A stretch of DNA of 26,524 nucleotides. Origin: an uncultured bacterium (GTDB lineage Bacteria; Verrucomicrobiota; Verrucomicrobiia; Verrucomicrobiales; DEV007). Numbering within the stretch: the stretch's first letter is position 1; each line of letters starts with the position of its first letter. A model generated the notes under the pieces. The model made no database searches, was not told where the DNA came from, and saw only the letters and a list, made by a program, of their open reading frames with translations. The position numbers and the translations under genes were made by a program. The stretch spans positions 1 to 26,524 of the forward strand of contig CAXBMO010000043.1 of NCBI GenBank assembly GCA_963977015.1. Reading direction: 5' to 3'. Below are positions 6,937-25,559 of this stretch, piece by piece.

Positions 6937-7836
6937 CTAGAGCCGGATCACGTCGACCTCGACGCTCAACAGTTGGTGACCAACGCCGACGAAAATTCCC
7001 CGGACAGGTTGAACATCGAAGTAGTCGCGACCGGTAGCGAGCACGATGTGATCGGCGCCGGGGCAAACATCATTGGTGGGGTCGAACGGAACCCAGCCGA
7101 AATCGGGAATGTAGACTTCGACCCAGGCGTGCGAGGCATCCGCGCCCTGAAGCTTGGGTTGGCCGGGAGGCGGTTGAGTTTCGAGGTAGCCACTGACGTA
7201 GCGCGCCGCAAACCCAAGGCTGCGAAGGCAGGAAATCATCAAATGCGCGAAATCCTGGCAAACGCCCCGTCTCCCCTTCAGCACGTCGAGCACCGGCGTC
7301 GAAACATCGGTTGCGCCGGGAACGTAGGTGAAGTCCGTGAAGATTCGGTGCATCAAATGGGTGGTTGATGCGATCAAATTCGAATCGGTGGCAAACGAGG
7401 GGAGGGAGTAGTCGCGCAGTTCCGGGTGCCAGGGCGCGGCCCGTGACGGAAACACGAAATCCCCCACCTCGATGACGTCGTCGCCGCTTAGGGATTCTAG
7501 AAATGTCAGGACGCTTTCGCGGGTCGGGTCGACAAACGTTGCCTTGGTCCAGGGGCGAGGTTTGGTCGAAACCAGGACGCGGCTTTCGCCGGTCACCACC
7601 AACTCGTCATGCGAGTGTTCAATCGAGAAGAAGTGCGTCCGGTTTCCGAAACAGTCGATCCGTTCGTTCACGGATTCGGACGAAGGCTCAACCACGATCT
7701 TAAAGGACTTTAGGGTTTGGAAATCCGAGTCAATTGGGCAGAGCCGTGCTTCGTTGTGGCACAAATCAATCCGGCCGCCGTAATCGTAGCGCGTGCGGTG
7801 TTTGATCTGATACTGGCGCTGGGATTTGGCTTGCAT
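6937..7836 (-). CDS. Transglutaminase-like protein (bacterial transglutaminase N-terminal domain + core)
   Basis: N-terminal YQIKHRTRYDY; catalytic triad in GVCQDFAH, SHAWVE and FDPTN. Confidence 0.95.
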   Translation of the reverse strand: MQAKSQRQYQIKHRTRYDYGGRIDLCHNEARLCPIDSDFQTLKSFKIVVEPSSESVNERIDCFGNRTHFFSIEHSHDELVVTGESRVLVSTKPRPWTKATFVDPTRESVLTFLESLSGDDVIEVGDFVFPSRAAPWHPELRDYSLPSFATDSNLIASTTHLMHRIFTDFTYVPGATDVSTPVLDVLKGRRGVCQDFAHLMISCLRSLGFAARYVSGYLETQPPPGQPKLQGADASHAWVEVYIPDFGWVPFDPTNDVCPGADHIVLATGRDYFDVQPVRGIFVGVGHQLLSVEVDVIRL

Positions 7837-7839
7837 GGC

Positions 7840-10341
7840 TTAGCGTTCCCGGGACGTATGAGTGAAATAGGTGACCGTGAGTTCGTCGGAGAGCTCAAGC
7901 AGGGTTTTGCGAATTTGGCCGAGGAACTTCGTGAGGTCAGTTCGAATTCCGGTTTTCGGATCCGGCTCGACCAAGACCTTCAGGTCAGCGTCGTGGACCT
8001 TGGTTTTCACCGTCTCAACCATGTTCAGAATGCGGGCCTTGGGCGTTTTGCGGGTCGCCTTTCCTGGCAGATCGTTCAAAATCATGGAAAGCCGCGTCAG
8101 TTGATAGGCGAGCGATCGGGGATTGTTGTCGATCTTCAGCATCAGATCGAGAATGCGGTCGGGACGAAGTTCGCGCCGGTATTGGCGGCGAAAGGTTCCC
8201 AGGCTATCCGAGATGGTAAGAACGGATTCGTAGACGAGGGACTCCAGTTCACCGGGGATCTGCTTGGCGATTCCGTCCTCAAGAATTCCGGTCAAAAGGA
8301 CCGCGCGTTCGATTCTTCTGCCGGCATCGAGTAGGCACCAACCAGCATCACGGGTCATGCTTTCCAGGTTGAGTCCCAGAAACGCGGTCAGGTCGAGCAG
8401 GAGGCGTTCGAGCGGCGCGTAGTAGTCAAAAACGGAGTTGGCTTTTCCCCTCGCTTCCTTCCAGCCACTGACACACGCCTCAATGGCTCGAAGGCTGATT
8501 CCTGACCAGATGTCACGAATTTCGTGGGAGGCGTAGTGCAAACCAGCAAGCTCAGCCGGAATGCTGCCGCGTCGCTGGGGATTCTCCAGCAGGGAGATCA
8601 ACTCGCGATCGACATCCAGGTTGTCTTTGGTCGTAAGCGGGGGGATCTCGAACAAATCGAGGAGAATGGTGAGAAGAAATTTCTCATGTTTATTCTCGAT
8701 ATCCGGAGGCTGATCGAATCCATCAATCCGGGAGGAGAGCAACCGTCCCAGGTATCGCGCCTTGGCGTCGGCCCGCTCGGCGTAGCGGCCTGTCCAAAAC
8801 AGGTTTTCTCCCGTTCGGCTCGGGAGCTGAAACGGATTGTTTGCGTCCGTCGTCTGATCTTCGGCCCAGATTGATTTGTGCTGCGCCAGTTCGGTTTCCG
8901 ACCGAATCCAGACATCTTTGGAAACGCCGCCTTCGTGGGTGGAAACGATGGGTTGCCCATCCCTGGCCGTCCGGGCCAAGCCACCGGAAAGGACGCGGAT
9001 GTGGCCTCGGCGCGTCCGCATCGCAAACGTTCTCAGCACCGCAGTGCGAGGCTGAAGTTTCCCATCAACCAGCGAGGGGACGGTCGAGAAATGAACCTGT
9101 TCCTGCCCGGCGAACATCGAGGGATCGGCCAAAATCCGGTCTCGCAGTTTGTTGAGCCCGGCTTGCGTCAAATTACAGCCGTATTGCGTTTTGAAGGTGC
9201 AGCGAATATTGACGCTTTTGATGACCATCTGCGACAGGTTCTGCAGCACATAGTCCAGCGCGGCGGGCTGTCCACACCACCAGGTCGCCACATTGGGGAG
9301 AATGAGATCCTGATCGAGCAGCAGTTTGGAGATCGCCGGCAAGAATGGAAACCATCCAGGACTTTCCAACACCCCAATCCCGGGATGATCATAGACCATC
9401 ACGTTGCCGGCGCGCATCGCCTCGAACAATCCGGGAATTCCGCCCGTATCATGGCTTTCGCATTCGAGGGGATCGAGCCCCCGGCCGGGCATCGCCCGCC
9501 ATATCACGTGAACGCGCTCGAGACCGCCGAGCGAGCGCAGCCAAACCTGGCGATTCCGAACCGACAGATCGCCGGGTCGAACCAGGGTGTAGCCAAGGTA
9601 GTTCGCCAAAAGAAAGCTCTCGAAGTTGCTGCCCTCCGTTCCATCCGTCAAAATGACGACGCGTGGTTCCCGGCCGGGCCAGGCGCGGCCTTCCAATTCC
9701 TGACGCCAGGAGCGGAAAAATCCGGCCAAGCGGCGAACCTTGCATGCCTGAAAGGTGGATGGCATGACGCGGCCGACGATGCTGCGATTTTCCAGCGCGA
9801 ATCCCAGTCCGACCTGGGAGTCGGCGCGTTGATTGAGCACCCACATTTGCCCCTTGGGGCCGCGCGCGAGGTCAAAGGCGGCCATGCCGACCGAGGGGGA
9901 GATGGGTCCTTTGGAATCACGTTCACAGAAAGCGCGCAAAAATCCCTGATGACGCAAAACGATCTCCGCCGGGATGACGCGCTCTTTGAGCAAACGACCG
10001 GGGCCGTAGAGATCATCGAGAACGGCGGCGGCCAACTCGACGCGCTGCTTTACACCTTCCTCGATGCCATCCCACTCCTTTTCGGAGATAATCCAGGGAA
10101 CTGGATCGAGCGCCCAGCGATCGGTCGCATTGTCGGCGTCCTTTTCGTTGGAATAGACCGCCCCGAATTCATGGACAAACCGCTTCGTGGCCCGATCCCA
10201 GGTCTGGAAGACCTTGGGGCTGTTGTTACTGCACCAATGCATCCATTCTTTCCAAGCTGGATTCAGCGTTCCGTCGGAGCGGACTGCTTCATCCCATTGC
10301 TTGGGAAGGGGTTGGTAGGGTATTTCGTTTGAGTCGGACAC
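7840..10341 (-). CDS. Circularly permuted type 2 ATP-grasp fused to an alpha-E (DUF403) domain
   Basis: WALDPVPWII, GLGFALENR, LPNVATWWCG, GGVSKDVW, then alpha-E motifs ENLFWTGRYAERA and ESMTRDAGWCLLDAGRRIERA, NPRSLAYQL. GTG start. Confidence 0.93.
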   Translation of the reverse strand: MSDSNEIPYQPLPKQWDEAVRSDGTLNPAWKEWMHWCSNNSPKVFQTWDRATKRFVHEFGAVYSNEKDADNATDRWALDPVPWIISEKEWDGIEEGVKQRVELAAAVLDDLYGPGRLLKERVIPAEIVLRHQGFLRAFCERDSKGPISPSVGMAAFDLARGPKGQMWVLNQRADSQVGLGFALENRSIVGRVMPSTFQACKVRRLAGFFRSWRQELEGRAWPGREPRVVILTDGTEGSNFESFLLANYLGYTLVRPGDLSVRNRQVWLRSLGGLERVHVIWRAMPGRGLDPLECESHDTGGIPGLFEAMRAGNVMVYDHPGIGVLESPGWFPFLPAISKLLLDQDLILPNVATWWCGQPAALDYVLQNLSQMVIKSVNIRCTFKTQYGCNLTQAGLNKLRDRILADPSMFAGQEQVHFSTVPSLVDGKLQPRTAVLRTFAMRTRRGHIRVLSGGLARTARDGQPIVSTHEGGVSKDVWIRSETELAQHKSIWAEDQTTDANNPFQLPSRTGENLFWTGRYAERADAKARYLGRLLSSRIDGFDQPPDIENKHEKFLLTILLDLFEIPPLTTKDNLDVDRELISLLENPQRRGSIPAELAGLHYASHEIRDIWSGISLRAIEACVSGWKEARGKANSVFDYYAPLERLLLDLTAFLGLNLESMTRDAGWCLLDAGRRIERAVLLTGILEDGIAKQIPGELESLVYESVLTISDSLGTFRRQYRRELRPDRILDLMLKIDNNPRSLAYQLTRLSMILNDLPGKATRKTPKARILNMVETVKTKVHDADLKVLVEPDPKTGIRTDLTKFLGQIRKTLLELSDELTVTYFTHTSRER

Positions 10342-10449
10342 TACGGCGCTATTTGGGAAGCCAATCGATCAAAGAGGAAGCGTCGGCAAGTGCCAAATTA
10401 CTCGAGAGACGCGGCCCCTGTTAGGAGGTGTGTGGAGCGCCTTTCGGTC

Positions 10450-10581
10450 TCAGCAGGTTGCTGAAACTGCAGCAACGATGGTGGAGTAATTCCTTGGAAC
10501 CCGGCGAATTAGCCTGCTTTGAGCTTCCCGGGAGGGGGTGGGCTCGGAGGCATTGTCGAGGTTAAAGAAAACTGCGGTCAT
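10450..10581 (-). pseudogene. 43-codon small ORF, possibly a decayed HAD-hydrolase 5' remnant
   Basis: Translates to MTAVFFNLDNASEPTPSREAQSRLIRRVPRNYSTIVAAVSATC. The start resembles HAD motif I (AVFFDLDxT). It lies 7 nt after TTGCGC-N17-TAGGCT (10617-10589). Confidence 0.3.
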
Positions 10582-10619
10582 GGCCGCAAGCCTAGCGCCG
10601 CATTCCGCAACGCGCAAGG

Positions 10620-13600
10620 TCAGGCCAGTTTTCGGACTCCGGTCGAGAGCGATTCCGGGGAATTTCTCAAATCCAGAGTTACTGGGAATTCTGGAATCGG
10701 CTCTTCCGCTGGAACGTAGAGGATTTCACCTCCCGGCGTTTCCTCAAAGAAACGGCCCGAAACGTTGGATTTCGCAGAGCGGGTTTCGACAATTCCTGGA
10801 GTGTGCCCATGATCCCAGAATCGATTCACGCGGCGGGATTCGGCTTCCATCGCATTGACGGGAAAGGACTCGTAGGACAGTCCGCCCGGATGGCTGACGT
10901 GGTAAACGCAGCCTCCCAAGGCTTTCCGATTGCGGGTATCCACCAAATCGAAGCGCAGCGGAGTCTGCACGCCAATGGTGGGATGCAGCGCGGAATGAGG
11001 GGCCCACGCCTTATAGCGCACGCCGCCAACACCTTCGCCCTGAACTCCGGTCGGGAAGAGAGGAACCCGTCTGCCGTTGCACAGAACGACGTGGCGGCCT
11101 TCGGTGAGCCCGCGAGCGCGAACCTGGAGCCGTTCGACCGAGGAATCGACATAGCGGGATGTGCCCTGCGAGGTGACTTCCTCACCGAGAACGTGCCATG
11201 GCTCGAGCGCGAATCGCAGTTCGATTTCGACACCGTGGTAATTGACCCGGCCATAAACCGGGAAACGGAATTCGTGAAACGCGCGGAGCCATTCGAGTTC
11301 GAACGGGATTCCGGATTCCCGCAGTTCCAGAACCACGTCACGCACGTCATCCCAAACGAATTGGGGAAGCATGAATTGATCGTGCAGCGAAGTTCCCCAC
11401 CGCACCAGTTTGTGGCGATACGGCTTGTCCCAGAAGAGGGAGATGAGACTGCGGACCAGCAGCGATTGCACCAGGCTCATACGAGCATGCGGAGGCATTT
11501 CGAACGCGCGCAATTCGAGCAATCCGAGGCGACCGCTGGAGCTGTCGGGTGAATAGAGCTTGTCGATGGAGAACTCCGAACGGTGCGTGTTGCCGCTCAG
11601 GTCGGTCAGCAGGTTTCGCAGCACGCGATCCAGCACCCACGGCGTTTCGGAGTTTTCAGGAAGCTGCTGAAAGGCAATATCCAACTCGAACAGGCGGTCG
11701 TCGACGCCTTCATCAACGCGGGGGGCCTGGCTGGTTGGCCCGATGAACATCCCCGAAAACAGGTAGGAGAGTCCAGGATGATGCTGCCAATAGGTAATCA
11801 GACTGCGCAGCAAGCCGGGACGACGAAGGAATGGACTTTGCGAAGGTGTTTCGGCTCCGACCACAACGTGGTTGCCGCCGCCGGTGCCGGTGTGGCGTCC
11901 ATCGAGCATGAACTTCTCCGCACAAAGGCGGGCAAGTCTGGCTTCCTGATAAAGGATTTCGGTGCGCTCGGAGAGTTCCTTCCAGTTGGAGGACGGGTGC
12001 ATGTTCACCTCAATCACGCCGGGATCAGGTGTGACTTTGAGGCGCTCAATCCGGGGATCGTGTGGTGGCTCGTAGCCTTCGATCACGACCGGGATTTCAA
12101 AATCAATCGCGGTTTCCTCGACCACTTTTAGCAGGAGGGCGTAGCGCTCCAACGTGTCGATCGGTGGGAAGAAAATGTGAAGGCGGCCTTCCCGGATTTC
12201 AAAGCAGAGAGCCGTGCGCGGCATCCATTGTTGGTGAAGGTGGGACCAGGATCCCGGCCCGGTATGGGGGGCCGTCGCGCTGCTTTCATCGGTAACGGGA
12301 GATTTGCTGCCTTTTCCTTGTTTCTTCCCCTTCGATTTGCTGGACGACTGATGGCGCAGATAATACTGGCGAAAGTCCTCAGGAGTCGGTGGTTTCTCGG
12401 GAATCGAAGTCAGGGGATTGACCAGAAGCGGTTCTCTGGCTTCCAACGGGCAAGCTTGTTCGACGAAGTCGTGCGGACGACTCTCGGTGAGTGAATTCAA
12501 TGGCAGGCGGAATCCCATCGGTGACGACCCTGGAATCAGATAGAGATTCTCTCGGCGAAACTGCCAACGACCTCCGCAAAATCCGCCGTAAGCCTCATCG
12601 TAGTAGATGGGCAGCACATAGCCTGAGGGAACTTCCACGCCGCGCCGGATCAGTTTTGCCAGCATTCGGCGCTCCAGGGAAGCGGAGTTTTCCGCCTCGC
12701 TTGGAATTTCGTCGGTTGGGAGAGTCGACTCTTTCCAGCGATAGTAGTCCACATCTTCCAACGCCGGGTGGATGAAGGTTTCGTCGATACGAAGGCGGTT
12801 CGCAAAGGCATGCGCGAAATCGTGGGCTCGATCGATGTTCAAGGTGCCCGGTTGATCCAGGTCGGCCAGGAGTTCTTCGTTCTCCCACAACGGAACCCCG
12901 TCTTTTCGCCAAAAACATCCATACGCCCAGCGCGGCACAGGCTCGCTCGGATACCATTTTCCTTCGCCATACCAACGCAGGCCGCCCGGGGCAAAGGCAC
13001 GCTGCAGGCGCACCAGCAAATCCATTCCCCGTTCCCGCTTGAACGGGCTGTCCGCGCCGGTATTCCATTCGTCGCCATCCATGTCGTCGATGGAGACAAA
13101 CGTGGGCTCGCCTCCCATGGTTAGGCGCACATCCTGGCTGTCCAGCCGGCTGTCCACTAAATCACCGACTGAGGAAATCGCCTGCCATTCTTCGTCCGAA
13201 TAAGGCTTCGTGACCCGGGGATCCTCATGAACGCGGGTGACCTTGTTTTCATAGGAAAACTCGATTTCGCATTTCTCCAAGGCTCCCGTTACCGGAGCGG
13301 CGCTTCCAGGATCTGGAGTGCAGGCCAGGGGGATGTGTCCTTCCCCGACAAACAGCCCGGACGTGGGATCCAAACCAACCCAGCCAGCGCCGGGGAGAAA
13401 AACTTCGGCCCAGGCGTGGAGATCGGTAAAATCCTCGCTGGCACCGGCGGGGCCCTCAAGCGGCTTCTCGTCTGGAGTCAATTGAACGAGGTAACCGGAT
13501 ACAAAGCGGGACGCCAAGCCATAGTGACGGAGAAGCTGTACCAACAGGTATCCTGAATCACGACAGGAGCCCGAGCCCTTCGTCAACGTTTCCTTGCACG

Positions 13601-14105
13601 ACTGCACCCCCGGCTCCATCCGGATGTTGTAGTCGATCATCCGTTCCAGCTCCTGGTTGATGCTGACCAGAAAGTCGTTGGTTCGCATCGGTTCGACCGG
13701 GCGAAGGTCCTCCACCAACTCCTTGAGTTTCTTTCCTCGTTCCTTGATTTCGAGGTATGGCTTCAGCTCGGTCCGCAGTTCGTCACTATACGTGAACGGG
13801 AACTCTTCAACTTCCTCCTCCAAGAAGAAGTCGAACGGATTGATCGTCGTCAGGTCCGCGACAAGATCGACAACGATGTTGAGCCGCCGCGTCTTTTTGG
13901 GGAAAACAAGCCGGAAGGCGTAGTTTCCAAACGGATCCTGAACCAGATTACAGAAATGATCTTCCGGCTCAACCTTTAGCGAATAGGAGAGGATTGGAGT
14001 CCGGCTATGGGGCGCGGGCCGCAGGCGAACAACATGAGGACTCAGGGTAACTGGTCGATCGAAATCGTACGTAGTACGATGGGTAAGAGCAACGTGGATT
14101 GACAT
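10620..14105 (-). CDS. Transglutaminase + DUF2126 putative amidoligase (COOH-NH2 ligase-like) protein
   Basis: Transglutaminase triad GSCRDS, LHAWAE, LDPTS. DUF2126 hallmarks LTMGGEPTF, VTPDPGVIEVN, GTGGGNH, PTSQAPR, NTHRSEFSIDK, LLELRAFEMPPH. Confidence 0.95.
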   Translation of the reverse strand: MSIHVALTHRTTYDFDRPVTLSPHVVRLRPAPHSRTPILSYSLKVEPEDHFCNLVQDPFGNYAFRLVFPKKTRRLNIVVDLVADLTTINPFDFFLEEEVEEFPFTYSDELRTELKPYLEIKERGKKLKELVEDLRPVEPMRTNDFLVSINQELERMIDYNIRMEPGVQSCKETLTKGSGSCRDSGYLLVQLLRHYGLASRFVSGYLVQLTPDEKPLEGPAGASEDFTDLHAWAEVFLPGAGWVGLDPTSGLFVGEGHIPLACTPDPGSAAPVTGALEKCEIEFSYENKVTRVHEDPRVTKPYSDEEWQAISSVGDLVDSRLDSQDVRLTMGGEPTFVSIDDMDGDEWNTGADSPFKRERGMDLLVRLQRAFAPGGLRWYGEGKWYPSEPVPRWAYGCFWRKDGVPLWENEELLADLDQPGTLNIDRAHDFAHAFANRLRIDETFIHPALEDVDYYRWKESTLPTDEIPSEAENSASLERRMLAKLIRRGVEVPSGYVLPIYYDEAYGGFCGGRWQFRRENLYLIPGSSPMGFRLPLNSLTESRPHDFVEQACPLEAREPLLVNPLTSIPEKPPTPEDFRQYYLRHQSSSKSKGKKQGKGSKSPVTDESSATAPHTGPGSWSHLHQQWMPRTALCFEIREGRLHIFFPPIDTLERYALLLKVVEETAIDFEIPVVIEGYEPPHDPRIERLKVTPDPGVIEVNMHPSSNWKELSERTEILYQEARLARLCAEKFMLDGRHTGTGGGNHVVVGAETPSQSPFLRRPGLLRSLITYWQHHPGLSYLFSGMFIGPTSQAPRVDEGVDDRLFELDIAFQQLPENSETPWVLDRVLRNLLTDLSGNTHRSEFSIDKLYSPDSSSGRLGLLELRAFEMPPHARMSLVQSLLVRSLISLFWDKPYRHKLVRWGTSLHDQFMLPQFVWDDVRDVVLELRESGIPFELEWLRAFHEFRFPVYGRVNYHGVEIELRFALEPWHVLGEEVTSQGTSRYVDSSVERLQVRARGLTEGRHVVLCNGRRVPLFPTGVQGEGVGGVRYKAWAPHSALHPTIGVQTPLRFDLVDTRNRKALGGCVYHVSHPGGLSYESFPVNAMEAESRRVNRFWDHGHTPGIVETRSAKSNVSGRFFEETPGGEILYVPAEEPIPEFPVTLDLRNSPESLSTGVRKLA

Positions 14106-14150
14106 TGTCGATGTTTCAAAGGTAACAGGTCGCTCCGGAAACTTGGGAAG

Positions 14151-15152
14151 CTACGCTGATACAGACTTGGTGGATTGCGACTGAGATTGAGATTTGGAAG
14201 TTGTTTCCAAAGGTTCTCTTTCTCTAATATAGAAATATTTTGCGAAGATCTCCAGCCCGATGGCATTCAGATCTATTTGCAAAGAGTCTACATACTGGTG
14301 AAGACCCATTTCTGCAACCTCATTCCTACCCGCAAAGTCAAGCCTCGCCAAGGTGGCGCCGGCCAGCCGTTCCGCTTCGTTGCTATATCGATGAGGCGGA
14401 GTGCTGGAGATACTATGTAAAATGGTGTGAACTTGACGCAGACAGAAGCGCACGGAGCGCGGGAATGTACTGGAAAAGATCAGGATGGCGGAAGCCTTGG
14501 TGTCCGTTACTTCACCGCCAAATCGTGCCCGGTAAACGGATGCGGCACTGCAGGCCCGCACGACGGTAGGCCACGCGGATCCGCGATTGCCTTTCGGCAG
14601 GAAGTGGGGGAAGTCGAGAATTCGGGTCGTTTTGTCCGCCCGCTCAATATATTTGCCAAGCTGAATAAAGGCCCAGGCCTCCTCATGGGGAATCGTGGCA
14701 TCGGTAATTCCATGAAACAGCAATGAGGACTCGATGATCTTAGTACAGAAGTCGGAGGCGGACTTTCTCCATTCCTGGCGGCCGTTATCTCTCAAAAAGA
14801 TATGAAGACCGTTCAGGTTTAACCAAACTTCTTCGGAAATCTGATCGCGAACTGCCCGGGCGTTCTCGCGCGCCGCAGCAATGCAGCTGACAATGCTCTC
14901 CGGGTTCTTTGGAGAGATGCTCATGAAGTCTGCAATCGGTTGTTTGCGCTTCTTGCCCTTGGATTGCTCAGCATAGAGTTCTTCAAGAGCCGTTACTTCG
15001 AGCATCGAACTCCATGACTTTGCGGTATCGTCGCCACTCCAGACCAGATCCATGAGATCTTCCTCGTGAGTGTTGATGAGGCGAGCGAGATTCTCGGCGC
15101 GCTCAATGTAGCGGGCCATCCAATAGAGGTTATTTGCGACTCGGGAAAGCAT
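14151..15152 (-). CDS. Stand-alone alpha-E domain protein (DUF403)
   Basis: MLSRVANNLYWMARYIERAENLAR, ARENARAVRDQIS, LGKYIERADKTTRILD, FPRSVRFCL; SQ-repeat C-terminal tail. Confidence 0.95.
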   Translation of the reverse strand: MLSRVANNLYWMARYIERAENLARLINTHEEDLMDLVWSGDDTAKSWSSMLEVTALEELYAEQSKGKKRKQPIADFMSISPKNPESIVSCIAAARENARAVRDQISEEVWLNLNGLHIFLRDNGRQEWRKSASDFCTKIIESSLLFHGITDATIPHEEAWAFIQLGKYIERADKTTRILDFPHFLPKGNRGSAWPTVVRACSAASVYRARFGGEVTDTKASAILIFSSTFPRSVRFCLRQVHTILHSISSTPPHRYSNEAERLAGATLARLDFAGRNEVAEMGLHQYVDSLQIDLNAIGLEIFAKYFYIREREPLETTSKSQSQSQSTKSVSA

Positions 15153-15157
15153 GGTGA

Positions 15158-16612
15158 CTAGTTTCCATTCATGGAGTGAGTGTTCCGCAATACCCAGGTG
15201 TCTTTACTTCCTCCTCCTTGCGAAGAGTTGACAATGAGTGATCCCTTTTTCAAGGCGACCCGGGTTAAACCGCCTGGAACAACGGTGATTTTGTCGCCAT
15301 AGAGAACAAAGGGACGAAGGTCGACATGCCTTCCCTCCGCGGACGAATCGCAAAGGGTGGGATGGCGCGAGAGGGAGACGACCGGCTGTGCGATGTATTC
15401 CCGAGGGTTGGCGATGATGAGTTTTCGGAATGCGGCAATTTCCTTTTTGGAGGCGGTGGGACCCATTAACATACCGTAGCCCCCGGCTTCGTTGGCTGCT
15501 TTAACGACCAAGTTATCCAAGTTCTCGAGAATGTAGGTGCGATCCTCTTTGTCGAGGCCCAGATAAGTTGGCACGTTCTCAAGGATCGGTTCCTCCGAAA
15601 GGTAGAAGCGAATCATGTCTGGAACGTAGGCGTAAACGACTTTGTCGTCCGCAACACCGGTTCCAATTGCGTTGACCAGGGTCACGTTGCCCTTGCGATA
15701 GGCGTCCACGAGACCGGGGACTCCCAGCAGGGAATCGCGCCGGAAAACTTTGGGATCGAGGAATTGATCGTCGATCCTTCGGTAGATGACATCCACCGCG
15801 ACCGGCCCTTTGGTCGTATGCATATAAACACGATCGCCCTCAACGACGAGATCCTGGCCCTCAACGATCTCGATTCCCATTTGCTGGGCGAGAAACGTGT
15901 GCTCGAAGTAGGCGCTGTTGTACTGGCCCGGTGTCAAAACCACGCAAACGGGATCGGTTCCCCCTTGTGGAGAGACGGATCGGAGCATGTCGCGAAGGGC
16001 TGTCGGGTAATGGGAAACCGGTTCGACCCGCATGCGCTGATACAACTGCGGAAAGGCACGTTTCATCGCCGCGCGGTTCTCCAGCATGTAGGAGACGCCT
16101 GACGGGCAACGGCCGTTGTCCTCCAAAACGCGGTAGGTTCCATCGTCATCGCGAATCAGATCCGATCCGCAGATGTGAATGTAGGCATTGTGGGGAAGAT
16201 CGATTCCCACAAAATCCGGCTGATAGTGCTTGGCCGACTTGATGACCGATTCGGGAATGATCTTTTCTTTAACGATGCGGGCATCATGATAAAGATCATT
16301 GAGAAACATGTTGAGCGCCGTGATGCGCTGCTTCAGTCCTGACTCCAGGTGTTCCCATTCATGGGACGGGATGACGCGGGGAACAGGGTCGAACGGGAAA
16401 ATGCGCTCCGTGCCCTCGTTGTCCGAGTAAACGGTGAACGTTACACCCTGCTCCAGAAACGAGCGATCCAACTGACGCTGTTTCTCCTCCATGTTCTTGC
16501 TGCTGAGCTTGGAGAATTCGCCGGTGATTTCCTCATACCAGGAAAACGGCCTTGTCGTACCTTTCTCGAACATTTCGTCGAAAAAGGTTTCAGGTTGGTA
16601 ATTTTTGAACAC
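15158..16612 (-). CDS. Circularly permuted type 2 ATP-grasp protein (predicted peptide ligase)
   Basis: [72 protein letters not shown] start. Confidence 0.96.
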
Positions 16613-16751: not shown

Positions 16752-17930
16752 TCAACGTATTATACCTGTCTGCGATACCGCAGCATAGTAAGCAACATGT
16801 TTTTGGAAGAATTCCAAATTATGATCAACCACGCGATTGATCAGATCGTGCTTCAAAATGTCCCATTCTTCGACGGCGCTCCGCAATTCCGGAAGCAAAT
16901 CCGGGTTCTGCTGCATCAACCAGCGGCGATTCAGAGCGCTCAAGTCGGGTTCCTCGGTCGTAGGGCTCAGGACCGATGGATTGGCCAATTGGAGAAAGCC
17001 GTGATCCTGGTGGATCGCTCTCAGCCAGAGATTCCACGGACGGTAGCTCAAAAAGTGCTGAAAGCTGGATCGGTCCTCCTTTAACCATGCGTTCTGCACC
17101 AGGAAACAAGCGGGATGTTGGGGGAAGAGACTGTTCTTCGGGAGGTCGATTCGATCCCAAACCGGAAGACTTTTCCGATTCGAGGCATCCAAATGATTGG
17201 GGAGAATGAAGGCGTGATCTTTCCAGTTGTCCGGAAGCTGCAGCGGTTCCATCAGGGCGGAACCCACGCTCATGAACATGACGAAGTCGGCAGTTTGGCG
17301 TTTGGCAACCAAATCGAGCCGGGAAAAGAGGTCAAAAAATCCGGAATCGACCGACTCGGTGTGGAGAGACGATAGCCCCTCCGGGATCGGGGGTGTCGGC
17401 CAAGGGCTCACCAGCGTCGCGGAATGAAAACTGGCGAAGTCGACTTTGCTGGACTGCAGCGTGTGCTCCAGATCGATCGCCTTTCCGCTGAGATCGATCA
17501 GGACCAGATCCACGTTGGCCATGGCTGGATCGTTGACCGGTTCCTTCCCTAATTCGAAGGTTTCAAGCGCTTCGTCCCATTGCTCAGCTGCCTCAATCTC
17601 GTCGATTTCCTCGGCAGCATCGTGAACGATTTTCAGCAACTCATCGGCCTGCACTTCCACTTCGGCGGCACTGCGGCGAGTTGCCTTCCAGCGGAGAAAG
17701 CGTTTGGCAATTTCACGGCCCTTGCGGGTTTGGCCTTTGAAAAAGTAGCTGTGGCTTTGGCTTAGCTTCTCCTTGTCATACCAGGGCGCATTTCGGTAGT
17801 CCTCGGTTTCGTTGACCAGTTCATCCAACCACTCTACCAGTTTGCCGACGTCTCGATCCGCTTTTCGCGCGGCCTTAACTTTGGAGCGGAGGTTTTCGAC
17901 CTGTTGCTCAAGTTGCCGGAGTTTGTTCAT
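16752..17930 (-). CDS. Hypothetical protein with N-terminal coiled coil and a possible degenerate glycosyltransferase-like C-terminal domain
   Basis: 392-aa ORF, ATGA-coupled to the upstream glycosyltransferase. Heptad-rich start MNKLRQLEQQVENLRSKVK. The C-terminal alpha/beta region lacks a clear DxD. Confidence 0.7.
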   Translation of the reverse strand: MNKLRQLEQQVENLRSKVKAARKADRDVGKLVEWLDELVNETEDYRNAPWYDKEKLSQSHSYFFKGQTRKGREIAKRFLRWKATRRSAAEVEVQADELLKIVHDAAEEIDEIEAAEQWDEALETFELGKEPVNDPAMANVDLVLIDLSGKAIDLEHTLQSSKVDFASFHSATLVSPWPTPPIPEGLSSLHTESVDSGFFDLFSRLDLVAKRQTADFVMFMSVGSALMEPLQLPDNWKDHAFILPNHLDASNRKSLPVWDRIDLPKNSLFPQHPACFLVQNAWLKEDRSSFQHFLSYRPWNLWLRAIHQDHGFLQLANPSVLSPTTEEPDLSALNRRWLMQQNPDLLPELRSAVEEWDILKHDLINRVVDHNLEFFQKHVAYYAAVSQTGIIR

Positions 17931-20257
17931 TTCCGTTTCGACAATGCTTGGGCAAAGAGATCCATCTCTGACTTGGCGGCGGCGGCAACCGTGTAGTTGG
18001 CCGCCGTATCAATCGCGGCTTTCCGCATTTCAGCATGAGAATCCGGATTGGCGAGAAACTCTTTCGCGGTCTTCAGGATCGCCTCGCGGTCGGAGGTGTC
18101 GACGATGAAGCCGTCTTTGCCGTCGGTTGTGTATTCGCCGGGGCCGCCATTGGCAGGGACGACCGGAACGCAGCCGCAGGCCATGGCTTCAAGGGCGGTT
18201 CGGCCAAACGCCTGATAAGTCGAGAGGTCAAGGAACAGCGTGGATTGACGAAGCACATCTGCCACTTCCTGGCGGGTCAGGACGCCGCGAATTTCGTCAA
18301 TTCCATCCTGGCCGGTCGACTCCCAGAAGGGATCGTCCTTCGCGCAGCCAAAAACGACGACCTTGATCTTGTCTCCCAACTCCTGCTTTAAAGCCTTCAA
18401 AACGTCTGCGGTCAGCTCGGGGGAACGCCTCGGTGTTGCCGGCCGAATCATCGCGGAAACGACGAGCGGGCCTTTCGTGGCTTCATCGGACGGGAAATAC
18501 ACCTCGTGATCGATGCTGGGGGAAACCTTGTGCATCTCCACGCCTTCCTTCTCCTTGAGCGTATCGCAAAGCCATTGGGTCTTGGCGAAGCAAAGCGCGT
18601 TGGGAACGGCCTGATAGGATTTCCGCGCGCGGAGATAAAGAGCATCGCTCTCGTCGTAAAAGAGAGGCTCGTAATCCTGAATATAATAGGCGGGAACGAT
18701 GTTTGGATGAAGCGTGGAAATGTGCTTCAACAAATCAACCGACGTAAACAAGGTGGCGACCACCACATCAAAGGTTTCCGCATACGCCGCCAATTCATAC
18801 TGACTCTGGTAAGGATAAAATCTTCCCTTGGGGTAACCGGGATACTTGGAAGCGTAGAAGTCGGCGTGTTCGTCGCGAATCGCCATTTGGGCGAAAACTC
18901 CCAATTCGCAAAGTCCGTTCGTTTCCTGAACAATGGAGTGGGTGCCGCCTCCGTCGCCTTTGAAGTCGAGCAGAAACAAAACCCGAAACGGCACCTTGTG
19001 CGTCTGAAGGTCCTTGAACTTTTCGCGGATGACCGCCAAATCCGGATGCTCGCGGGTCACGGTGCAGGCATCGCCGAGATTTTGCTCGCCGACCTTGTCC
19101 TTCAATAGCTGGGTCGCGGCTTTGGAGAGCACCTTTCTCCGTTCGTGAGTGAAGCTCTTGCTCTTGGCGTGAAACACATAGGCGTCATCGGCGACGACCA
19201 GCTTGAATCCGGCATCGCGGGCGCGGAGGCAATAGTCGTTCTCCTCACCGTAGCCTTTGGGAAACGTCTCCTCATCCAGGTAGCCGATCGTGTTCATGAC
19301 CGCGCGTTTGATGACAAAACAAAAGCCGTTGATCAACTCCACCTGCGGATAGGCGGGCTGATGGCGAAGCAGGAGAGAACTGCCGACATCATCGACCGTG
19401 ATTCCTTCCGGCAACTCGTTCACCTCCCAGTCCCCGACATCCGCGAAACGTTTCGGGACGGATTGCCAGCTCGCGGCATTGGAGAGCGGTCCCAGTATCC
19501 CGATTTTCTCGTCCGCCTCGCCACAGGCGACCAGCGTTTCGAGCCAAAGATGGGGAACGATCGTGTCGCTGTTCAACAGGACGACGTAGTCGGCGTGCGT
19601 ATGGCGCAATCCCTGGTTCGCGGCGATGGTGTAGCCGCGCGCCTCGACGTTGCGGATGATGTCGGTCGGGACCAGCGCATTCTCGGCAAATTCCTCCAGG
19701 TAGGTGCTGGTTTCATCGTCGGAACCATCATTCACCAGCACGATTCGCTGCAGTTTCGGGGAACGCGCGACGATTGAATCCAGACAAACCTTCACGTCGC
19801 CGAGCGCGTTGTGAACGCAAATCACGATCTCAATGGTCGGCGTGAGAAACGGAACGTGCAGCGCCTCATCCTGATCTTCGGGCCGGTCCAAATCCGAGAC
19901 TTGGAGGATGGTGTCAGGCACATTCGGCTCCCACTCCTTCTCGCTCTTGACGAGAAGTTCCTCGATTTGCGTGACCCGCTTGTTCCCAATCAATCCCGCG
20001 ACACTGGCCTTGAGCCGCTCAACCGATTCGCGAATCTGCCCCATCAGGTTTTTGGCCCGCTGCAGCGCTTTCGTCTGATTCTTCAGGTCACGAACCAGGT
20101 CCTTCTCCCGCTGGTGCGCGAAATAAGCCCGTTGCCGTTGGACGTTGAACAAATGGTAGTTCTGCCAGCGCGATTCCCGGAGCGCAGCACGCAATCGGCG
20201 GATCTCCGTGCTTTCGGGATTGTTGGAAGAATCTTCGTTGGATGAGGAGTCAGACAC
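17927..20257 (-). CDS. Multidomain glycosyltransferase: coiled coil + GT2 + GT4-like domain
   Basis: GT2 motifs IVICVHNA, LVNDGSDD, LLNSDT, GYGEENDYC. GT4-like QAFGRTALEAMACG. Charged helical N-terminus. Confidence 0.92.
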   Translation of the reverse strand: MSDSSSNEDSSNNPESTEIRRLRAALRESRWQNYHLFNVQRQRAYFAHQREKDLVRDLKNQTKALQRAKNLMGQIRESVERLKASVAGLIGNKRVTQIEELLVKSEKEWEPNVPDTILQVSDLDRPEDQDEALHVPFLTPTIEIVICVHNALGDVKVCLDSIVARSPKLQRIVLVNDGSDDETSTYLEEFAENALVPTDIIRNVEARGYTIAANQGLRHTHADYVVLLNSDTIVPHLWLETLVACGEADEKIGILGPLSNAASWQSVPKRFADVGDWEVNELPEGITVDDVGSSLLLRHQPAYPQVELINGFCFVIKRAVMNTIGYLDEETFPKGYGEENDYCLRARDAGFKLVVADDAYVFHAKSKSFTHERRKVLSKAATQLLKDKVGEQNLGDACTVTREHPDLAVIREKFKDLQTHKVPFRVLFLLDFKGDGGGTHSIVQETNGLCELGVFAQMAIRDEHADFYASKYPGYPKGRFYPYQSQYELAAYAETFDVVVATLFTSVDLLKHISTLHPNIVPAYYIQDYEPLFYDESDALYLRARKSYQAVPNALCFAKTQWLCDTLKEKEGVEMHKVSPSIDHEVYFPSDEATKGPLVVSAMIRPATPRRSPELTADVLKALKQELGDKIKVVVFGCAKDDPFWESTGQDGIDEIRGVLTRQEVADVLRQSTLFLDLSTYQAFGRTALEAMACGCVPVVPANGGPGEYTTDGKDGFIVDTSDREAILKTAKEFLANPDSHAEMRKAAIDTAANYTVAAAAKSEMDLFAQALSKRK

Positions 20258-20369: not shown

Positions 20370-21893
20370 CTAGACGATCACCGTATCAAAATGCTCAGGA
20401 ATATGGAGCGCAAATTGTTCGTCCGCTTCGGGGATGTCCCGCAACGCAGCCGCTTCGCCGACTTTCGCCAATCCATCCGTATTGCTCGCATCGCTCATTT
20501 CGCGCATGGGGACCGCCTTTTTGACGATCGCGGGCGGAAGCCCCAGTTCCTCCAGATACTTCTCTTCCAGCATCGCGTCATAGCGCACGTAGTGCAGCAG
20601 CGCTTGGCCGCCGATCAGGTCCTCATAGCAATCACCGATCTCCGAATCGATTTCCCAGCAGGTCGGCGAAGTCGAGAAGGACTGCATCAGCAACTGGTTC
20701 TGCCAGTTCGCGTCATCCATCAGCATTTGCGGGATCTCCTTCACCAAACGCAAAAGGCCGAATTTCATCACCTCCTTCATCGTAAAGCGAATCCGCGCAT
20801 TGCCCGTTCCCATCGAGACCAGCAACAACTTGTCCGCGCCGGTATCCCAATGAAACGGAAAGCCTTTCAGCACTGCGGCAAGGAAGCACTGGAGCGAGGG
20901 ATTGTTCGACATGCTCACGCCGCCATCCATGAACGCGCCCTTCACCATCTTGCCCTTCTCATCCACATCGCCCGTCGGCAAAACCTGCGGCTCAAAGAAG
21001 GTTGGCGCGGCTGTGCTCGCCCGGATTGAATGGCGGAGATTGAGCGGTGCGTTGTACTCATAGTATTTCCCGCGCGGATGATTGATGAGCGGCCAGGTGC
21101 TCCGCGTATCGGCCCGTTTTGCGACAATGCACAACCCGGTCTGCAATTCCGGACCACCCAGCTTCGCATCGCCAAAGATCGTCCGCAGGTGTTTCTCCAG
21201 TGCCTTTTTGTCGAAGCGCTTGTTCTGCGTCAGCATCCCGAACGTTCCCTTGTCGCCCTTGAATACATCGCCGCCCAGTTTCAAATACATCGCCTTCAGG
21301 TCGGAGGTCTTCATCCCCATCGCCAACGCCCCGGCAATGATCGACCCCGTGCTGGTCCCGCCGATCAAATCAAAATACTGGCAAAGCCGGAAATCGCCCG
21401 GATTCGCGATCTTCCCGGTTTTGTAGAGTCGCTGCGCCAGCTTGTTTTCCAGTCGCTCGACAAATCCCAGCGTCATCACGCCTTTGATGCCGCCGCCGTC
21501 CAGCGCCAGGATCCGCTTTGGATGCGTTCCGTCAAAGTGGCGCATCAAGACCGTGTCGGCCGTCGGCGCATCTGCCGGAGCCGGGGCCGGGGCATGCTCG
21601 GGAGGTTCAATCCGGTATCCCATCGCCAAAATCGCCTTGATCGACTCCATCGCCGTATCGCGATCATACTGCTTCTCGCCATCGCTCAATTGATCATAGG
21701 CCAACAGATCCGGATGCTTCTTCGCATCATCATCGCGCTTTTCGCCATAAGTCCAACCTTCCGCCATCCTTCCGCGAGCCCAGACGTCGTGAGCGTTCTC
21801 CGCAATCTTCTCGGTGAGATCTTCCAGGCCGTGGGGAAGTTTGACGCTCGACGTGTCAATCGGGGTGGGTTGATAATTCGATGAATCTGCCAT
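20370..21893 (-). CDS. RyR-domain / patatin-like phospholipase fusion protein (about 507 aa)
   Basis: Start placed at ATG 21893. RyR repeat YQPTPIDTSSVKL...IAENAHDVWARGRMAEGWTYGEKRDDDAKKHPDLLAYDQLSDGEKQYDR...GYRIE, Pro/Ala linker, then patatin motifs LDGGGIKG, GTSTG, ASTAAPTFF and DGGVS. Confidence 0.92.
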   Translation of the reverse strand: MADSSNYQPTPIDTSSVKLPHGLEDLTEKIAENAHDVWARGRMAEGWTYGEKRDDDAKKHPDLLAYDQLSDGEKQYDRDTAMESIKAILAMGYRIEPPEHAPAPAPADAPTADTVLMRHFDGTHPKRILALDGGGIKGVMTLGFVERLENKLAQRLYKTGKIANPGDFRLCQYFDLIGGTSTGSIIAGALAMGMKTSDLKAMYLKLGGDVFKGDKGTFGMLTQNKRFDKKALEKHLRTIFGDAKLGGPELQTGLCIVAKRADTRSTWPLINHPRGKYYEYNAPLNLRHSIRASTAAPTFFEPQVLPTGDVDEKGKMVKGAFMDGGVSMSNNPSLQCFLAAVLKGFPFHWDTGADKLLLVSMGTGNARIRFTMKEVMKFGLLRLVKEIPQMLMDDANWQNQLLMQSFSTSPTCWEIDSEIGDCYEDLIGGQALLHYVRYDAMLEEKYLEELGLPPAIVKKAVPMREMSDASNTDGLAKVGEAAALRDIPEADEQFALHIPEHFDTVIV

Positions 21894-22005
21894 GTCGGCC
21901 ACATCTAACAACGAACTCTGCGCGGATGTCGAGCGTTGATTGTTCGTGAATTCAGCCCGTTCCCAGTCGTCGTTTCTGCCCGTATCCCCGCTTCGCGCGA
22001 TCCCT

Positions 22006-22110
22006 GAAAAGTGGAAGGGCACCCCGACTGCGTCCCCGGGATGCCCTTCCTTGCCAGGAGGAGGTTGTTGCTGGTTGTCCGGCTCGCAATGAGCGCTGCA
22101 ATCCGGACAC
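22006..22110 (-). ncRNA. Candidate small RNA with a C-rich anti-Shine-Dalgarno loop
   Basis: 5' stem UGUCCGG...CCGGACA, middle CCAG-CAACAACCUCCUC-CUGG, then a 14-bp terminator hairpin. Upstream AT-rich region with CGTTCTAAT just before the 5' stem. Confidence 0.4.
22007..22050 (-). terminator. Rho-independent terminator
   Basis: Minus strand GGAAGGGCATCCCG-N10-CGGGGTGCCCTTCC-ACTTTT: 14-bp stem with one G-U pair and a short U tract. Confidence 0.7.
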
Positions 22111-22192
22111 TTTATTAGAACGCGCCGCGCCGATCTTTAATCAATCGTTTCAGGATTTTTTTGGAAAAATTGCCGACCCGACTCCGCCACCC

Positions 22193-24809: not shown

Positions 24810-25394
24810 TTAGCGACTAAAGGGATTGCCGCCCCCTGCTATATATCCGTTCTCGACGATTTGAATGCGGGTAAAACCATCCGGGTGCCGGTGGCTGGGA
24901 AAGAACCCCTCGGTTGCCAACCAGGACTGAACACCTCTGCGGGAAATGTTCATTCTCGCTAACGTATAACCGGCAAAGTAGTCTGCTCGGGCTTCATCGG
25001 ACCAATCCGCTATCATGTTGGGAACGCGTATGCCGGTGAGGATGTGGCCAACCTCATGCGCGAGGATTCCCACAGTGGCCGCCCGTCCATGCCGGGCCAC
25101 GATTCCGTTGAAGAAGTCCGGGTCAAAGACGATGTAACCGGTGCGGTTGAGGACCGGAGGAAACGCAAGGGCGTTGTTGACTCCCCGTTGGGAAAAGACA
25201 GGAATGGGGGCCGCGCCGTGAACGCGGCAAATGGCGACGACTTCCTGAAATGCCGCTCCCCGGTCGGGATGAGCAGGCTCCTGGGCAAAGCCGCCTCCTT
25301 GGGTGAACCCGCACATCGGGCGTTGTGCATGGGCCGTGGTGAAACCGAATGCCAATGCGTATAATGATAGAGCTGCCAATACCTTGAGGTTCAT
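24810..25394 (-). CDS. Secreted M48-like zinc metalloprotease
   Basis: Signal peptide MNLKVLAALSLYALAFGFTTAHA-Q, NNALA, ILAHEVGH, EARADYFAG, HPDGFTR. Start moved to ATG 25394. Confidence 0.82.
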   Translation of the reverse strand: MNLKVLAALSLYALAFGFTTAHAQRPMCGFTQGGGFAQEPAHPDRGAAFQEVVAICRVHGAAPIPVFSQRGVNNALAFPPVLNRTGYIVFDPDFFNGIVARHGRAATVGILAHEVGHILTGIRVPNMIADWSDEARADYFAGYTLARMNISRRGVQSWLATEGFFPSHRHPDGFTRIQIVENGYIAGGGNPFSR

Positions 25395-25559
25395 TGTTAT
25401 GGAATGATTAGTGTTAAGGATGTGGGCACGGGTTCGCGCCGATAGGCGCACCAGTTCCTGCCTGAAGATAACCCCTGCTACTGGTAACGATGCTAGGAAT
25501 TCGGAAATTCGAAGGCAAGCAAAAAACGAAAATAATAAATTGGTGGGGCGGAGTTGGAG

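Follow-up and report, generated by a model that had tools for sequence, protein, structure and literature searches.

Background

The gene considered here occupies positions 20370..21893, on the minus strand, of a 26,524-nucleotide stretch from an uncultured bacterium of the Verrucomicrobiales (contig CAXBMO010000043.1; this whole stretch is called the window below) and joins a ryanodine-receptor (RyR) repeat to a patatin phospholipase. Suicide lipases of the CapV type, gated by nucleotides, and cyclic ADP-ribose (cADPR) signals made by TIR proteins are both established, and sensor-effectors of the Thoeris ThsA type are activated by a TIR product. The binding of cADPR to the R12 domain of the animal ryanodine receptor is an old question, and to our knowledge a RyR-type host receptor has so far been missing from TIR/cADPR signalling.

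RyR domains carried by phages bind 2'cADPR, 3'cADPR or cADPR with nanomolar to micromolar affinity (PMC13232231; 10.64898/2026.06.04.730250). In RyDEP, the gp78 product of phage DyoEdafos, H75 and D117 form a catalytic dyad, with W78 stacking on the adenine and H100 touching the phosphates; of eight further phage RyDEP homologues, six bind such signals and none cleaves them (PMC13232231). The RyR domain of a Pectobacterium phage binds 3'cADPR at 43 nM and both 2'cADPR and cADPR at less than 1 uM, using equivalent His, Trp, His and Asp residues (10.64898/2026.06.04.730250). In their available portions both of these 2026 preprints treat phage proteins only (PMC13232231; 10.64898/2026.06.04.730250), and the terms 'fused' and 'host-encoded' were not found in the available text of the first.

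The RyR-patatin gene and its product

Judged by its sequence, the gene product is probably a cytoplasmic two-module protein, in which an N-terminal RyR/R12 nucleotide-binding domain and a CapV-like patatin phospholipase are joined through a flexible linker. We favour, with confidence that stands about at the midpoint, the reading that it is a sensor-effector encoded by an orphan gene, an NAD-derived or adenine nucleotide binding the RyR pocket and thereby regulating a CapV-like, dimeric membrane lipase. We put forward only tentatively the more specific idea of a cADPR isomer as the ligand and phage defence as the role. The features on which the argument draws are as follows.

20370..21893 (-): whole coding sequence, 507 amino acids plus stop, made up of RyR domain, linker, patatin core and C-terminal helical/dimer region
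21606..21875 (-): RyR or R12-type domain, residues 7-96
21789-21791, 21780-21782, 21714-21716 and 21663-21665 (-): RyR ligand residues H35, W38, H60 and D77, in that order
21555..21605 (-): Pro/Ala-rich linker, residues 97-113
20898..21509 (-): patatin catalytic core, residues 129-332
Residues 133-138, 179-183 and 323-325: patatin motifs GGGIKG (GGG oxyanion loop at 133-135), GTSTG and DGG
21351-21353 and 20925-20927 (-): catalytic residues Ser181 and Asp323
21051..21095 (-): motif W267-P268-x2-N271-H272-P273 ... N281, at the position of the CapV cGAMP-contact segment and at the predicted dimer interface
20373..20897 (-): C-terminal region, residues 333-507, including the long helix 380-405

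The open reading frame (ORF) is stop-free over its 507 codons; a longer frame could start from a GTG at 22022, and all nine of the orthologues compared begin at the position of the ATG at 21893. An earlier note on this DNA, made from the letters alone, had placed an RyR repeat, a linker and an intact set of patatin motifs here, and all of these are borne out, the motif coordinates having been checked. The Pfam RyR profile (PF02026) matches with E 1.2e-35 and 122 bits against a cut-off of 27.4, over model positions 1-90 of 91 (125.9 bits in the genome-wide scan), and the patatin profile (PF01734) matches residues 129-332 with E 1.2e-26 and 94.5 bits against a cut-off of 27.7. The RyR domain begins at residue 7 and, as read off the sequence, no hydrophobic stretch precedes it. 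Among 50 aligned relatives the glycines G133-G135, Ser181 and Asp323 are invariant, as is the whole W267-P268-x2-N271-H272-P273 ... N281 motif, and the C-terminal region at residues 333-507 is conserved across a very large family of standalone patatins of about 370 amino acids, to which the lipase half is about 50% identical.

Ligand residues of the RyR domain

When gp78 of DyoEdafos was aligned with the RyR domain of the window and four other host RyR domains, RyDEP residues H75, W78, H100 and D117 fell on H35, W38, H60 and D77, invariant in all six sequences; the window domain and gp78 are 31% identical in this alignment. Within the ten fusion-type sequences discussed below, H35, W38 and D77 are kept in every one and H60 in nine. 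Such conservation would point to a competent pocket and not to specificity for cADPR.

The best sequence matches of the domain include an RyR protein of Bacteroides thetaiotaomicron (E 1e-32) and single repeats of animal RyR2 (about E 1e-21 each), while its phage matches are short stand-alone ORFs. Its closest relatives outside the patatin fusions, at 62-65% identity, are RyR-TPR-S-cyclase proteins, and RyR domains are also found fused to kinases, cyclases, sigma-54 ATPases, C39 peptidases and transporters (TrkA_N, ABC). The most plausible source of a signal for this domain would be TIR proteins acting in trans, and the genome has a large stock of these: 34 TIR_2 matches (33 above the cut-off) and 12 ThsB_TIR matches, together with a single sub-threshold match to TPR-S. 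The alternative partner offered by the earlier note, a second protein bearing RyR, finds no candidate, this gene being the one RyR match in the 95%-complete genome.

A TIR-rich island of the genome lies at a contig end (L201, G000:C25:74000-91504) and includes a 1717-amino-acid Lipase_3-TIR-SLOG(cluster2)-CHAT protein, a 452-amino-acid TIR protein, an nSTAND1 protein (923 amino acids), an SLOG cluster2 protein, a 1154-amino-acid ORF and a further pair of short TIR proteins, of which one is ThsB-like.

The lipase half and its predicted dimer

An AlphaFold2 model built from a 50-row alignment reached a mean predicted local distance difference test score (pLDDT) of 88.8 and a predicted template-modelling (TM) score of 0.77, with low confidence restricted to linker residues 97-113 (pLDDT 59-73), a segment whose length differs between orthologues. 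Compared with the PDB by Foldseek, its best match was the AbCapV filament bound to cyclic GMP-AMP (cGAMP) (8zr9_A, E 1.1e-17, TM 0.76 on the target), with potato patatin and cUA-activated CapE among the further best matches; the RyR part matched the human RyR3 Repeat12 domain solved with AMP-PCP (9ls7), and VipD came low in the list (E 6.8e-8, TM 0.25).

Two copies of residues 8-507 were modelled as a homodimer in three runs beside three controls, giving an ipSAE interface score of 0.77 (runs 0.82, 0.77 and 0.77) against 0.00 for the best control, and so passing a mark that the tool gives to 20 of 30 solved homo-pairs and to 1 of 23 proteins solved as single chains. The runs agreed on at least 66% of contacts, with partner pLDDT of at least 80. 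The confident interface is confined to residues 259-432 and centres on helix 380-405 (contacts 391-391, 395-395 and 402-402), taking in residues 259-268 and 276-277 of the motif region. AbCapV likewise dimerises through its long helix (PMC12480259), and the predicted pass may mirror likeness to CapV dimers already solved.

The best PADLOC model for the lipase is the 'Effector Phospholipase' (PDLC00758, 149.8 bits) of the cyclic-oligonucleotide-based anti-phage signalling systems (CBASS), and the profile of the patatin family matches CapV with E 4.2e-31. Membership in CBASS was considered and rejected. The score against the NCBIfam CBASS_lipase equivalog (NF041079) is 117.5 bits, under its cut-off of 200, and the SMODS profile (PF18144, the sole CD-NTase model searched) finds no match in the 95%-complete genome or among the window ORFs. 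Nor are the cGAMP-contact residues conserved: of the AbCapV contacts F147, K149, D159, E207 and R279 (PMC12480259), the first three align to L269, N271 and N281 in a profile alignment against 8zr9 that is moderately reliable in this loop region, and E207 and R279 could not be mapped in it. Because the invariant W-P-x2-N-H-P motif sits at the CapV cGAMP-contact position and borders the predicted interface, the lipase half has seemingly retained a pocket where CapV binds its ligand, though for a different ligand.

TIR genes beside the patatin family

A scan of a genome collection with the family profile confirmed at least 585 of 600 pattern matches, mostly from Bacteroidota, with others from Acidobacteriota, Gemmatimonadota and Planctomycetota. 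Eighty loci were kept, and in 76 of these the patatin ORF was retained by a simple gene caller (L039, L068, L074 and L085 were dropped). The three genes on each side were clustered into families, representatives of which were checked by Pfam and PADLOC, with the following neighbours.

TIR + TPR-S: 25 loci
SLATT/DUF4231: 10 loci
nSTAND1: 9 loci
TIR + EAD11 (PADLOC ThsB model, 160.9 bits): 7 loci
Other TIR: 7 loci
Nuc_deoxyri_tr2: 7 loci
SIR2_2 + TIR: 7 loci
TIR + WD40: 5 loci

Taking distances from the patatin of up to one, two and three genes, 15, 27 and 35 of the 76 loci have a TIR gene, as recognised by a profile we built from the neighbour sequences themselves; these counts are not independent events, many of the loci coming from related Bacteroidota. 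TIR genes make up 33 of 277 neighbours at offsets 1-2 and 1 of 189 from offset 5 outwards. Some members of the family are themselves fused, one to a C-terminal TIR domain (P0075), others to a PGDYG domain or to an N-terminal domain of about 190 amino acids (P0015, P0049). A Thoeris preprint of December 2025 predicts 29 types, with 'phospholipases' among the effectors, and reports that SLATT and CMP-hydrolase/TPR effectors respond to canonical cADPR; for the validated types V-XI no patatin is mentioned in its main text (10.64898/2025.12.03.692087). The present patatin family may well be the source of those predicted 'phospholipases'.

The N-terminal domain of about 190 amino acids in P0015 and P0049 (566 amino acids) has Gly-rich motifs and no Pfam or PADLOC match; our impression is that it may be a SLOG-like sensor. 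A similar Gly-rich pattern, followed by predicted hydrophobic segments, occurs in a gene that overlaps the end of a standalone patatin at L121 (1378-2481 (+)).

TIR genes beside host RyR genes

Of 401 genomes sampled from the phylum, 20 carry RyR. Flanks of up to about 10 kb in either direction were examined at 27 RyR places in 23 genomes (G018, a 2.5-kb contig, G020:C89, G033 and the sub-threshold G225 were excluded), along with 16 control regions at an arbitrary coordinate of the same genomes (20 were requested, and four contigs proved too short). TIR genes were found in 14 of the 27 RyR loci (398 kb) and in none of the 16 control regions (293 kb), the sample being small, restricted to one phylum and partly composed of paralogous families and short contigs, with one locus (G198) picked for its nearby patatin. 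A looser filter adds a weak fifteenth locus, L238. The TIR profile recovered 17 of 17 TIR loci of the window's own genome, which had partly served as its training set.

At seven of the RyR loci the next gene downstream, in the same orientation, is the TIR gene, at distances of 0, 12, 16, 103, 117, 130 and 978 nucleotides, and eight of the partner TIRs were confirmed by Pfam. The RyR-bearing proteins fall into several architectures, RelA_SpoT-LSDAT(SLOG)-RyR of about 890 amino acids, AAA-RyR of about 900-950, TrkA_N-RyR of about 630, ABC transporter-RyR, RyR-TPR-S-adenylate/guanylate cyclase and stand-alone RyR, and their partners are TIR-NB-ARC-TPR, TIR-WD40, TIR-TPR and short ThsB-like TIRs. 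At L250, for example, an RyR-TPR-S-cyclase gene is followed after 117 nucleotides by a ThsB-like TIR gene. Going by gene order and domain content, these RyR genes with their downstream TIRs look like undescribed two-gene TIR systems.

The recurrent architectures are seen at L238-L253 and L229-L233 (genomes G286, G117, G198, G134, G067, G039, G021 and others). L229 (G198:C1:3669000-3688900) is a 13-kb island with a RelA_SpoT-RyR protein of 885 amino acids, a TrkA_N-RyR protein of 615 and a TIR protein of 351, together with a 1006-amino-acid trypsin-like protein, three ORFs of about 225-351 amino acids and a patatin 36% identical to the window lipase. At L232 (G169:C35, 2620-7963 (-)) a stand-alone 94-amino-acid RyR is followed 6 nucleotides downstream by a 717-amino-acid ORF with no Pfam match, and the same-strand run continues with a ThsB-like TIR of 309 amino acids and a TPR protein of 634.

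Distribution and origin of the fusion

The fusion is rare. A search of 5.8 billion proteins gave 6171 of 8000 scored candidates at E <=0.001. The 120 matches listed include at least nine clusters that combine RyR and patatin (P0002-P0010, 94-55% identity) and an N-terminally cut fragment (P0011); nearly all of the others are patatin-only proteins of about 370 amino acids, 47-52% identical over residues ~115-507, a few such relatives being longer (P0015, P0049, P0075 and P0088). One member is assigned by its source to a metagenome-assembled genome of the Verrucomicrobiales. In a FastTree phylogeny of the lipase region (50 sequences, midpoint root) the ten fusion-type sequences form one clade with support 1.0, sister to the sampled standalone patatins, so that a single fusion event fits the tree within this 50-sequence sample.

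Among the genomes of 40 relatives the full fusion was found only in G001, of the same genus (80% identity), with a contig-end fragment in G003; a third genome of the genus, G002 (92% complete), yielded no fusion, and 400 sampled genomes of the phylum yielded no full-length match to the whole protein. One apparent further fusion, at L121, where the match seemed to start from residue 30, was rejected as a 368-amino-acid standalone patatin. Metagenomes scanned for the surroundings of the other fusion clusters gave only RyR-less patatins among the matches listed. Searches of the full-text literature within reach, which leaves aside subscription journals and closed supplements, turned up no account of an RyR-patatin protein or of host RyR-TIR operons.

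Genomic setting

The window opens with a histidine-kinase fragment, a lipoate/biotin ligase, a TPR peptidase, a YggS-like protein and a LysR regulator, continues with a duplicated transglutaminase / circularly permuted ATP-grasp / Alpha-E / DUF2126 cluster and a GT2+GT4 glycosyltransferase, and ends with the RyR-patatin gene, an M20 amidohydrolase, a TPR protein and a four-helix-bundle protein. The coordinates of three of its ORFs are as follows.

17927-20257 (-): GT2+GT4 glycosyltransferase, 776 amino acids, with an N-terminal stretch of about 130 amino acids that looks like coiled coil
16752-17930 (-): ORF of 392 amino acids without Pfam, NCBIfam or PADLOC match
24810-25451 (-): ORF of 213 amino acids without Pfam, NCBIfam or PADLOC match

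The earlier note had described the RyR-patatin gene as standing alone. This holds insofar as the 26.5-kb window contains no TIR gene, second RyR, CD-NTase or PADLOC defence gene, but not with respect to the glycosyltransferase, which follows on the same strand after 112 nucleotides, and after 12 in the same-genus orthologue of G001 (L016, 12260-14527). Because the gap is so short, the two genes may be co-transcribed. A scan for promoters and terminators around the gene gave nothing beyond shuffle expectation on its strand, and Rfam gave no match across the window.

Some other features of the window may be mentioned. The glycosyltransferase has a weak, sub-threshold match to 'GT4-conflict' (E 7e-4). 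Upstream of the RyR-patatin gene is a 299-nucleotide intergenic stretch (21894-22192), with no clear Shine-Dalgarno sequence before the ATG. At 6937-16612 (-) there are two consecutive transglutaminase / ATP-grasp / Alpha-E sets and a 1161-amino-acid Bact_transglu_N-Transglut_core-DUF2126 protein; ATP-grasp and Alpha-E are fused in one set (833 amino acids) and separate in the other (484 and 333).

The proposed mechanism and what weighs against it

In the sensor-effector reading, the lipase would rest as a CapV-like homodimer formed through the long helix 380-405, with its lipid pocket occluded. One of the many TIR proteins of the genome would make an NAD-derived nucleotide (a cADPR isomer or a related ADPR/adenine ligand) in trans, and this nucleotide would bind the RyR pocket formed by H35, W38, H60 and D77. 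Binding would shift the dimer to an open or higher-order state, in which the Ser181-Asp323 dyad would hydrolyse membrane phospholipids, so that the cell stops growing or dies, as happens in abortive infection. Of this scheme we infer which ligand binds, in which direction it regulates, that the oligomer switches and that the protein serves in defence. The analysis itself shows the identity of the two domains, intact catalytic and ligand residues, a CapV-like fold, a predicted dimer, a link of both halves to TIR genes at the level of their families, and a fusion that is rare and, in the sample, of single origin. The ligand-gated lipase effector suggested by the earlier note gains in part from the RyR profile match, the intact CapV-like lipase, the retained ligand residues and the TIR-linked relatives.

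A number of observations count against such a reading. The four RyR ligand residues are shared by the Pfam family as a whole, animal channels with bound ATP analogues (9ls7) among them, and, given its varied fusion partners, RyR may be a general regulatory domain. The lipase has its own invariant motif at the CapV cGAMP-contact site, making RyR-less ligand sensing possible; because this motif is conserved and the RyR-less relatives must do so, the lipase may sense a ligand without RyR. The confident interface includes no RyR residues, the tool leaving the residues it does not name uncertain, any RyR-RyR contact among them, such as a back-to-back homodimer through helices alpha1 and alpha4. The counts of TIR association come from related genomes, a self-built TIR profile and small, partly hand-picked samples. 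Near the gene itself there is no TIR, cyclase or other signal-maker, and no second RyR, either in the window or in the 20 kb that surround the G001 orthologue, and PADLOC found no match for five of six neighbouring ORFs and one weak match (E 0.0077) for the sixth. The order M20, RyR-patatin, glycosyltransferase is kept in G001, and the GC content of the gene is like that of its surroundings and even across the window. All in all the gene looks like a resident chromosomal gene and not part of a defence island, and the defence setting to which the earlier note had looked gives way to a syntenic context of housekeeping appearance.

Alternative readings

That context speaks for the most probable of the alternatives, in which the protein is a housekeeping lipase: RyR would sense the ATP/ADP/AMP energy state and tune lipid turnover, possibly together with the glycosyltransferase 112 nucleotides downstream (12 in the orthologue), without any part in phage defence. 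The syntenic, non-mobile neighbourhood with neither TIR nor CD-NTase, the ATP analogue bound by the animal R12 domain (9ls7) and the fusion of RyR to kinases, cyclases, sigma-54 ATPases, TrkA_N and ABC transporters all suit it. The lipase family, however, dwells among TIR, SLATT, SIR2 and STAND genes, the best models of the lipase are CBASS effectors, and the patchy spread of the gene (two of three other same-genus genomes, one of these with a fragment, and none of 400 genomes of the phylum) is unlike that of a core function. We consider this reading unlikely.

Ring nucleases fused to some CRISPR ancillary effectors offer an analogy for another, somewhat less probable arrangement, a self-limiting effector. 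Here the lipase would be activated through its own pocket at the dimer interface, and RyR would be a built-in sponge or glycosidase for a cADPR-type signal, setting a threshold or acting as an off-switch. The invariant W267-P268...N271-H272-P273...N281 motif, at both the CapV cGAMP site and the predicted interface, fits this arrangement, as do the RyR-less relatives, which must function without RyR, and the retention of the RyDEP catalytic dyad H75/D117 as H35/D77. All experimentally characterised prokaryote-associated RyR domains in the available portions of the two preprints, moreover, remove signal, by cleavage or by sequestration (PMC13232231; 10.64898/2026.06.04.730250). On the other hand, none of the eight RyDEP homologues beside the DyoEdafos enzyme cleaved signal despite high conservation (PMC13232231), a 1:1 sponge fused to its own effector buffers little, and the recurrence of host RyR joined to an output domain next to TIR resembles sensor-effector logic.

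It is improbable that RyR is a mere dimerisation or scaffold module that stabilises the lipase dimer and has no ligand role. The solved RyR domains of B. thetaiotaomicron and of phage are homodimers (PMC13232231), and lipases of the CapV type act as dimers (PMC12480259), but the lipase half makes the predicted dimer alone, with RyR outside the confident interface, the RyR-less relatives presumably dimerise too, and a pure scaffold would not need H35, W38 and D77, which are invariant in 10 of 10 fusions. Least credible of all is an exported or injected patatin toxin of the ExoU or VipD kind with RyR mimicking a host domain, since, even though such effectors exist, VipD appears in the fold list (E 6.8e-8, TM 0.25) and the RyR is strikingly close to animal repeats (E ~1e-21 per repeat), the nearest proteins by fold and profile are CapV and CapE and not ExoU or VipD, the window has no secretion genes that we could see and the protein no signal sequence obvious on reading, and RyR occurs widely in bacteria and phages that have no link to animals.

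Significance and comparison with known systems

The sensor-effector reading draws its interest less from this single gene than from the wider pattern of RyR genes beside TIR genes. Together, the window gene and the RyR-TIR operons suggest that in bacteria the RyR fold serves to receive TIR signals, with a lipase, a cyclase, RelA/SpoT-like enzymes and others as suggested outputs. One might go further, and at some risk of being wrong propose that host RyR/R12 domains are a new class of receptor for TIR-made cADPR signals; the RyR-patatin protein would then be an orphan 'hub' that hears some of the 34 TIR proteins and kills by lipolysis, phage RyDEP and RyR Tad would be captured copies of host receptors, and the pairing of cADPR with R12 would foreshadow the modulation of animal RyR. 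Were a receiving role of RyR in TIR signalling to be borne out, Thoeris-like immunity would gain a new sensor domain, the phage RyR sponges would have an origin, and a simple, soluble bacterial model would be at hand for the binding of cADPR by animal R12. Should the ligand instead be ATP or ADP, the gene would still offer a first lead to the function of many bacterial RyR domains.

Comparison with the described systems sets out what is shared and what is particular to this gene. CapV and CapE (8zr9, 9jeh, 9ioq) have the same patatin fold and Ser-Asp dyad as the window lipase, and AbCapV forms a two-fold dimer through its longest helix, as does the predicted dimer here; CapV, though, has no separate sensor domain corresponding to the N-terminal RyR, and the last ~120 residues of the window protein have no sequence alignment to it. 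RyDEP (DyoEdafos gp78) and RyR Tad (Pectobacterium phage CB1 gp68) belong to the same PF02026 family and keep the four ligand or catalytic residues. They are, however, small phage anti-Thoeris proteins that destroy or sequester the host signal, whereas the window encodes a host chromosomal fusion of 507 amino acids to an enzyme of a cell-killing type and contains no phage genes. The 'putative ryanodine receptor' of B. thetaiotaomicron (3nrt, 4n05, 6uag) is 54-58% identical to the window RyR, with a TM score of 0.79-0.86, but is a stand-alone domain of about 100 amino acids, and the Repeat12 domains of the animal receptor are tandem repeats inside a channel of 5000 amino acids.

The logic proposed here, a small-molecule sensor joined to a toxic enzyme, is that of Thoeris ThsA (SIR2-SLOG) and similar fusions, from which the window protein differs in having RyR in place of SLOG, Macro or TPR-S, a lipase as the effector and no adjacent thsB-like gene. 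The TIR-neighbouring patatins of about 370 amino acids share with it 47-54% identity, the C-terminal region and the invariant W-P-x2-N-H-P motif; they have no RyR and stand within three genes of a TIR in 35 of 76 loci, while the window gene has RyR and no TIR nearby. On the favoured reading the fusion is an RyR sensor domain placed on a patatin of Thoeris neighbourhoods and encoded as an orphan, and it belongs to a kind, the nucleotide-signal-gated suicide lipase, that is already known.

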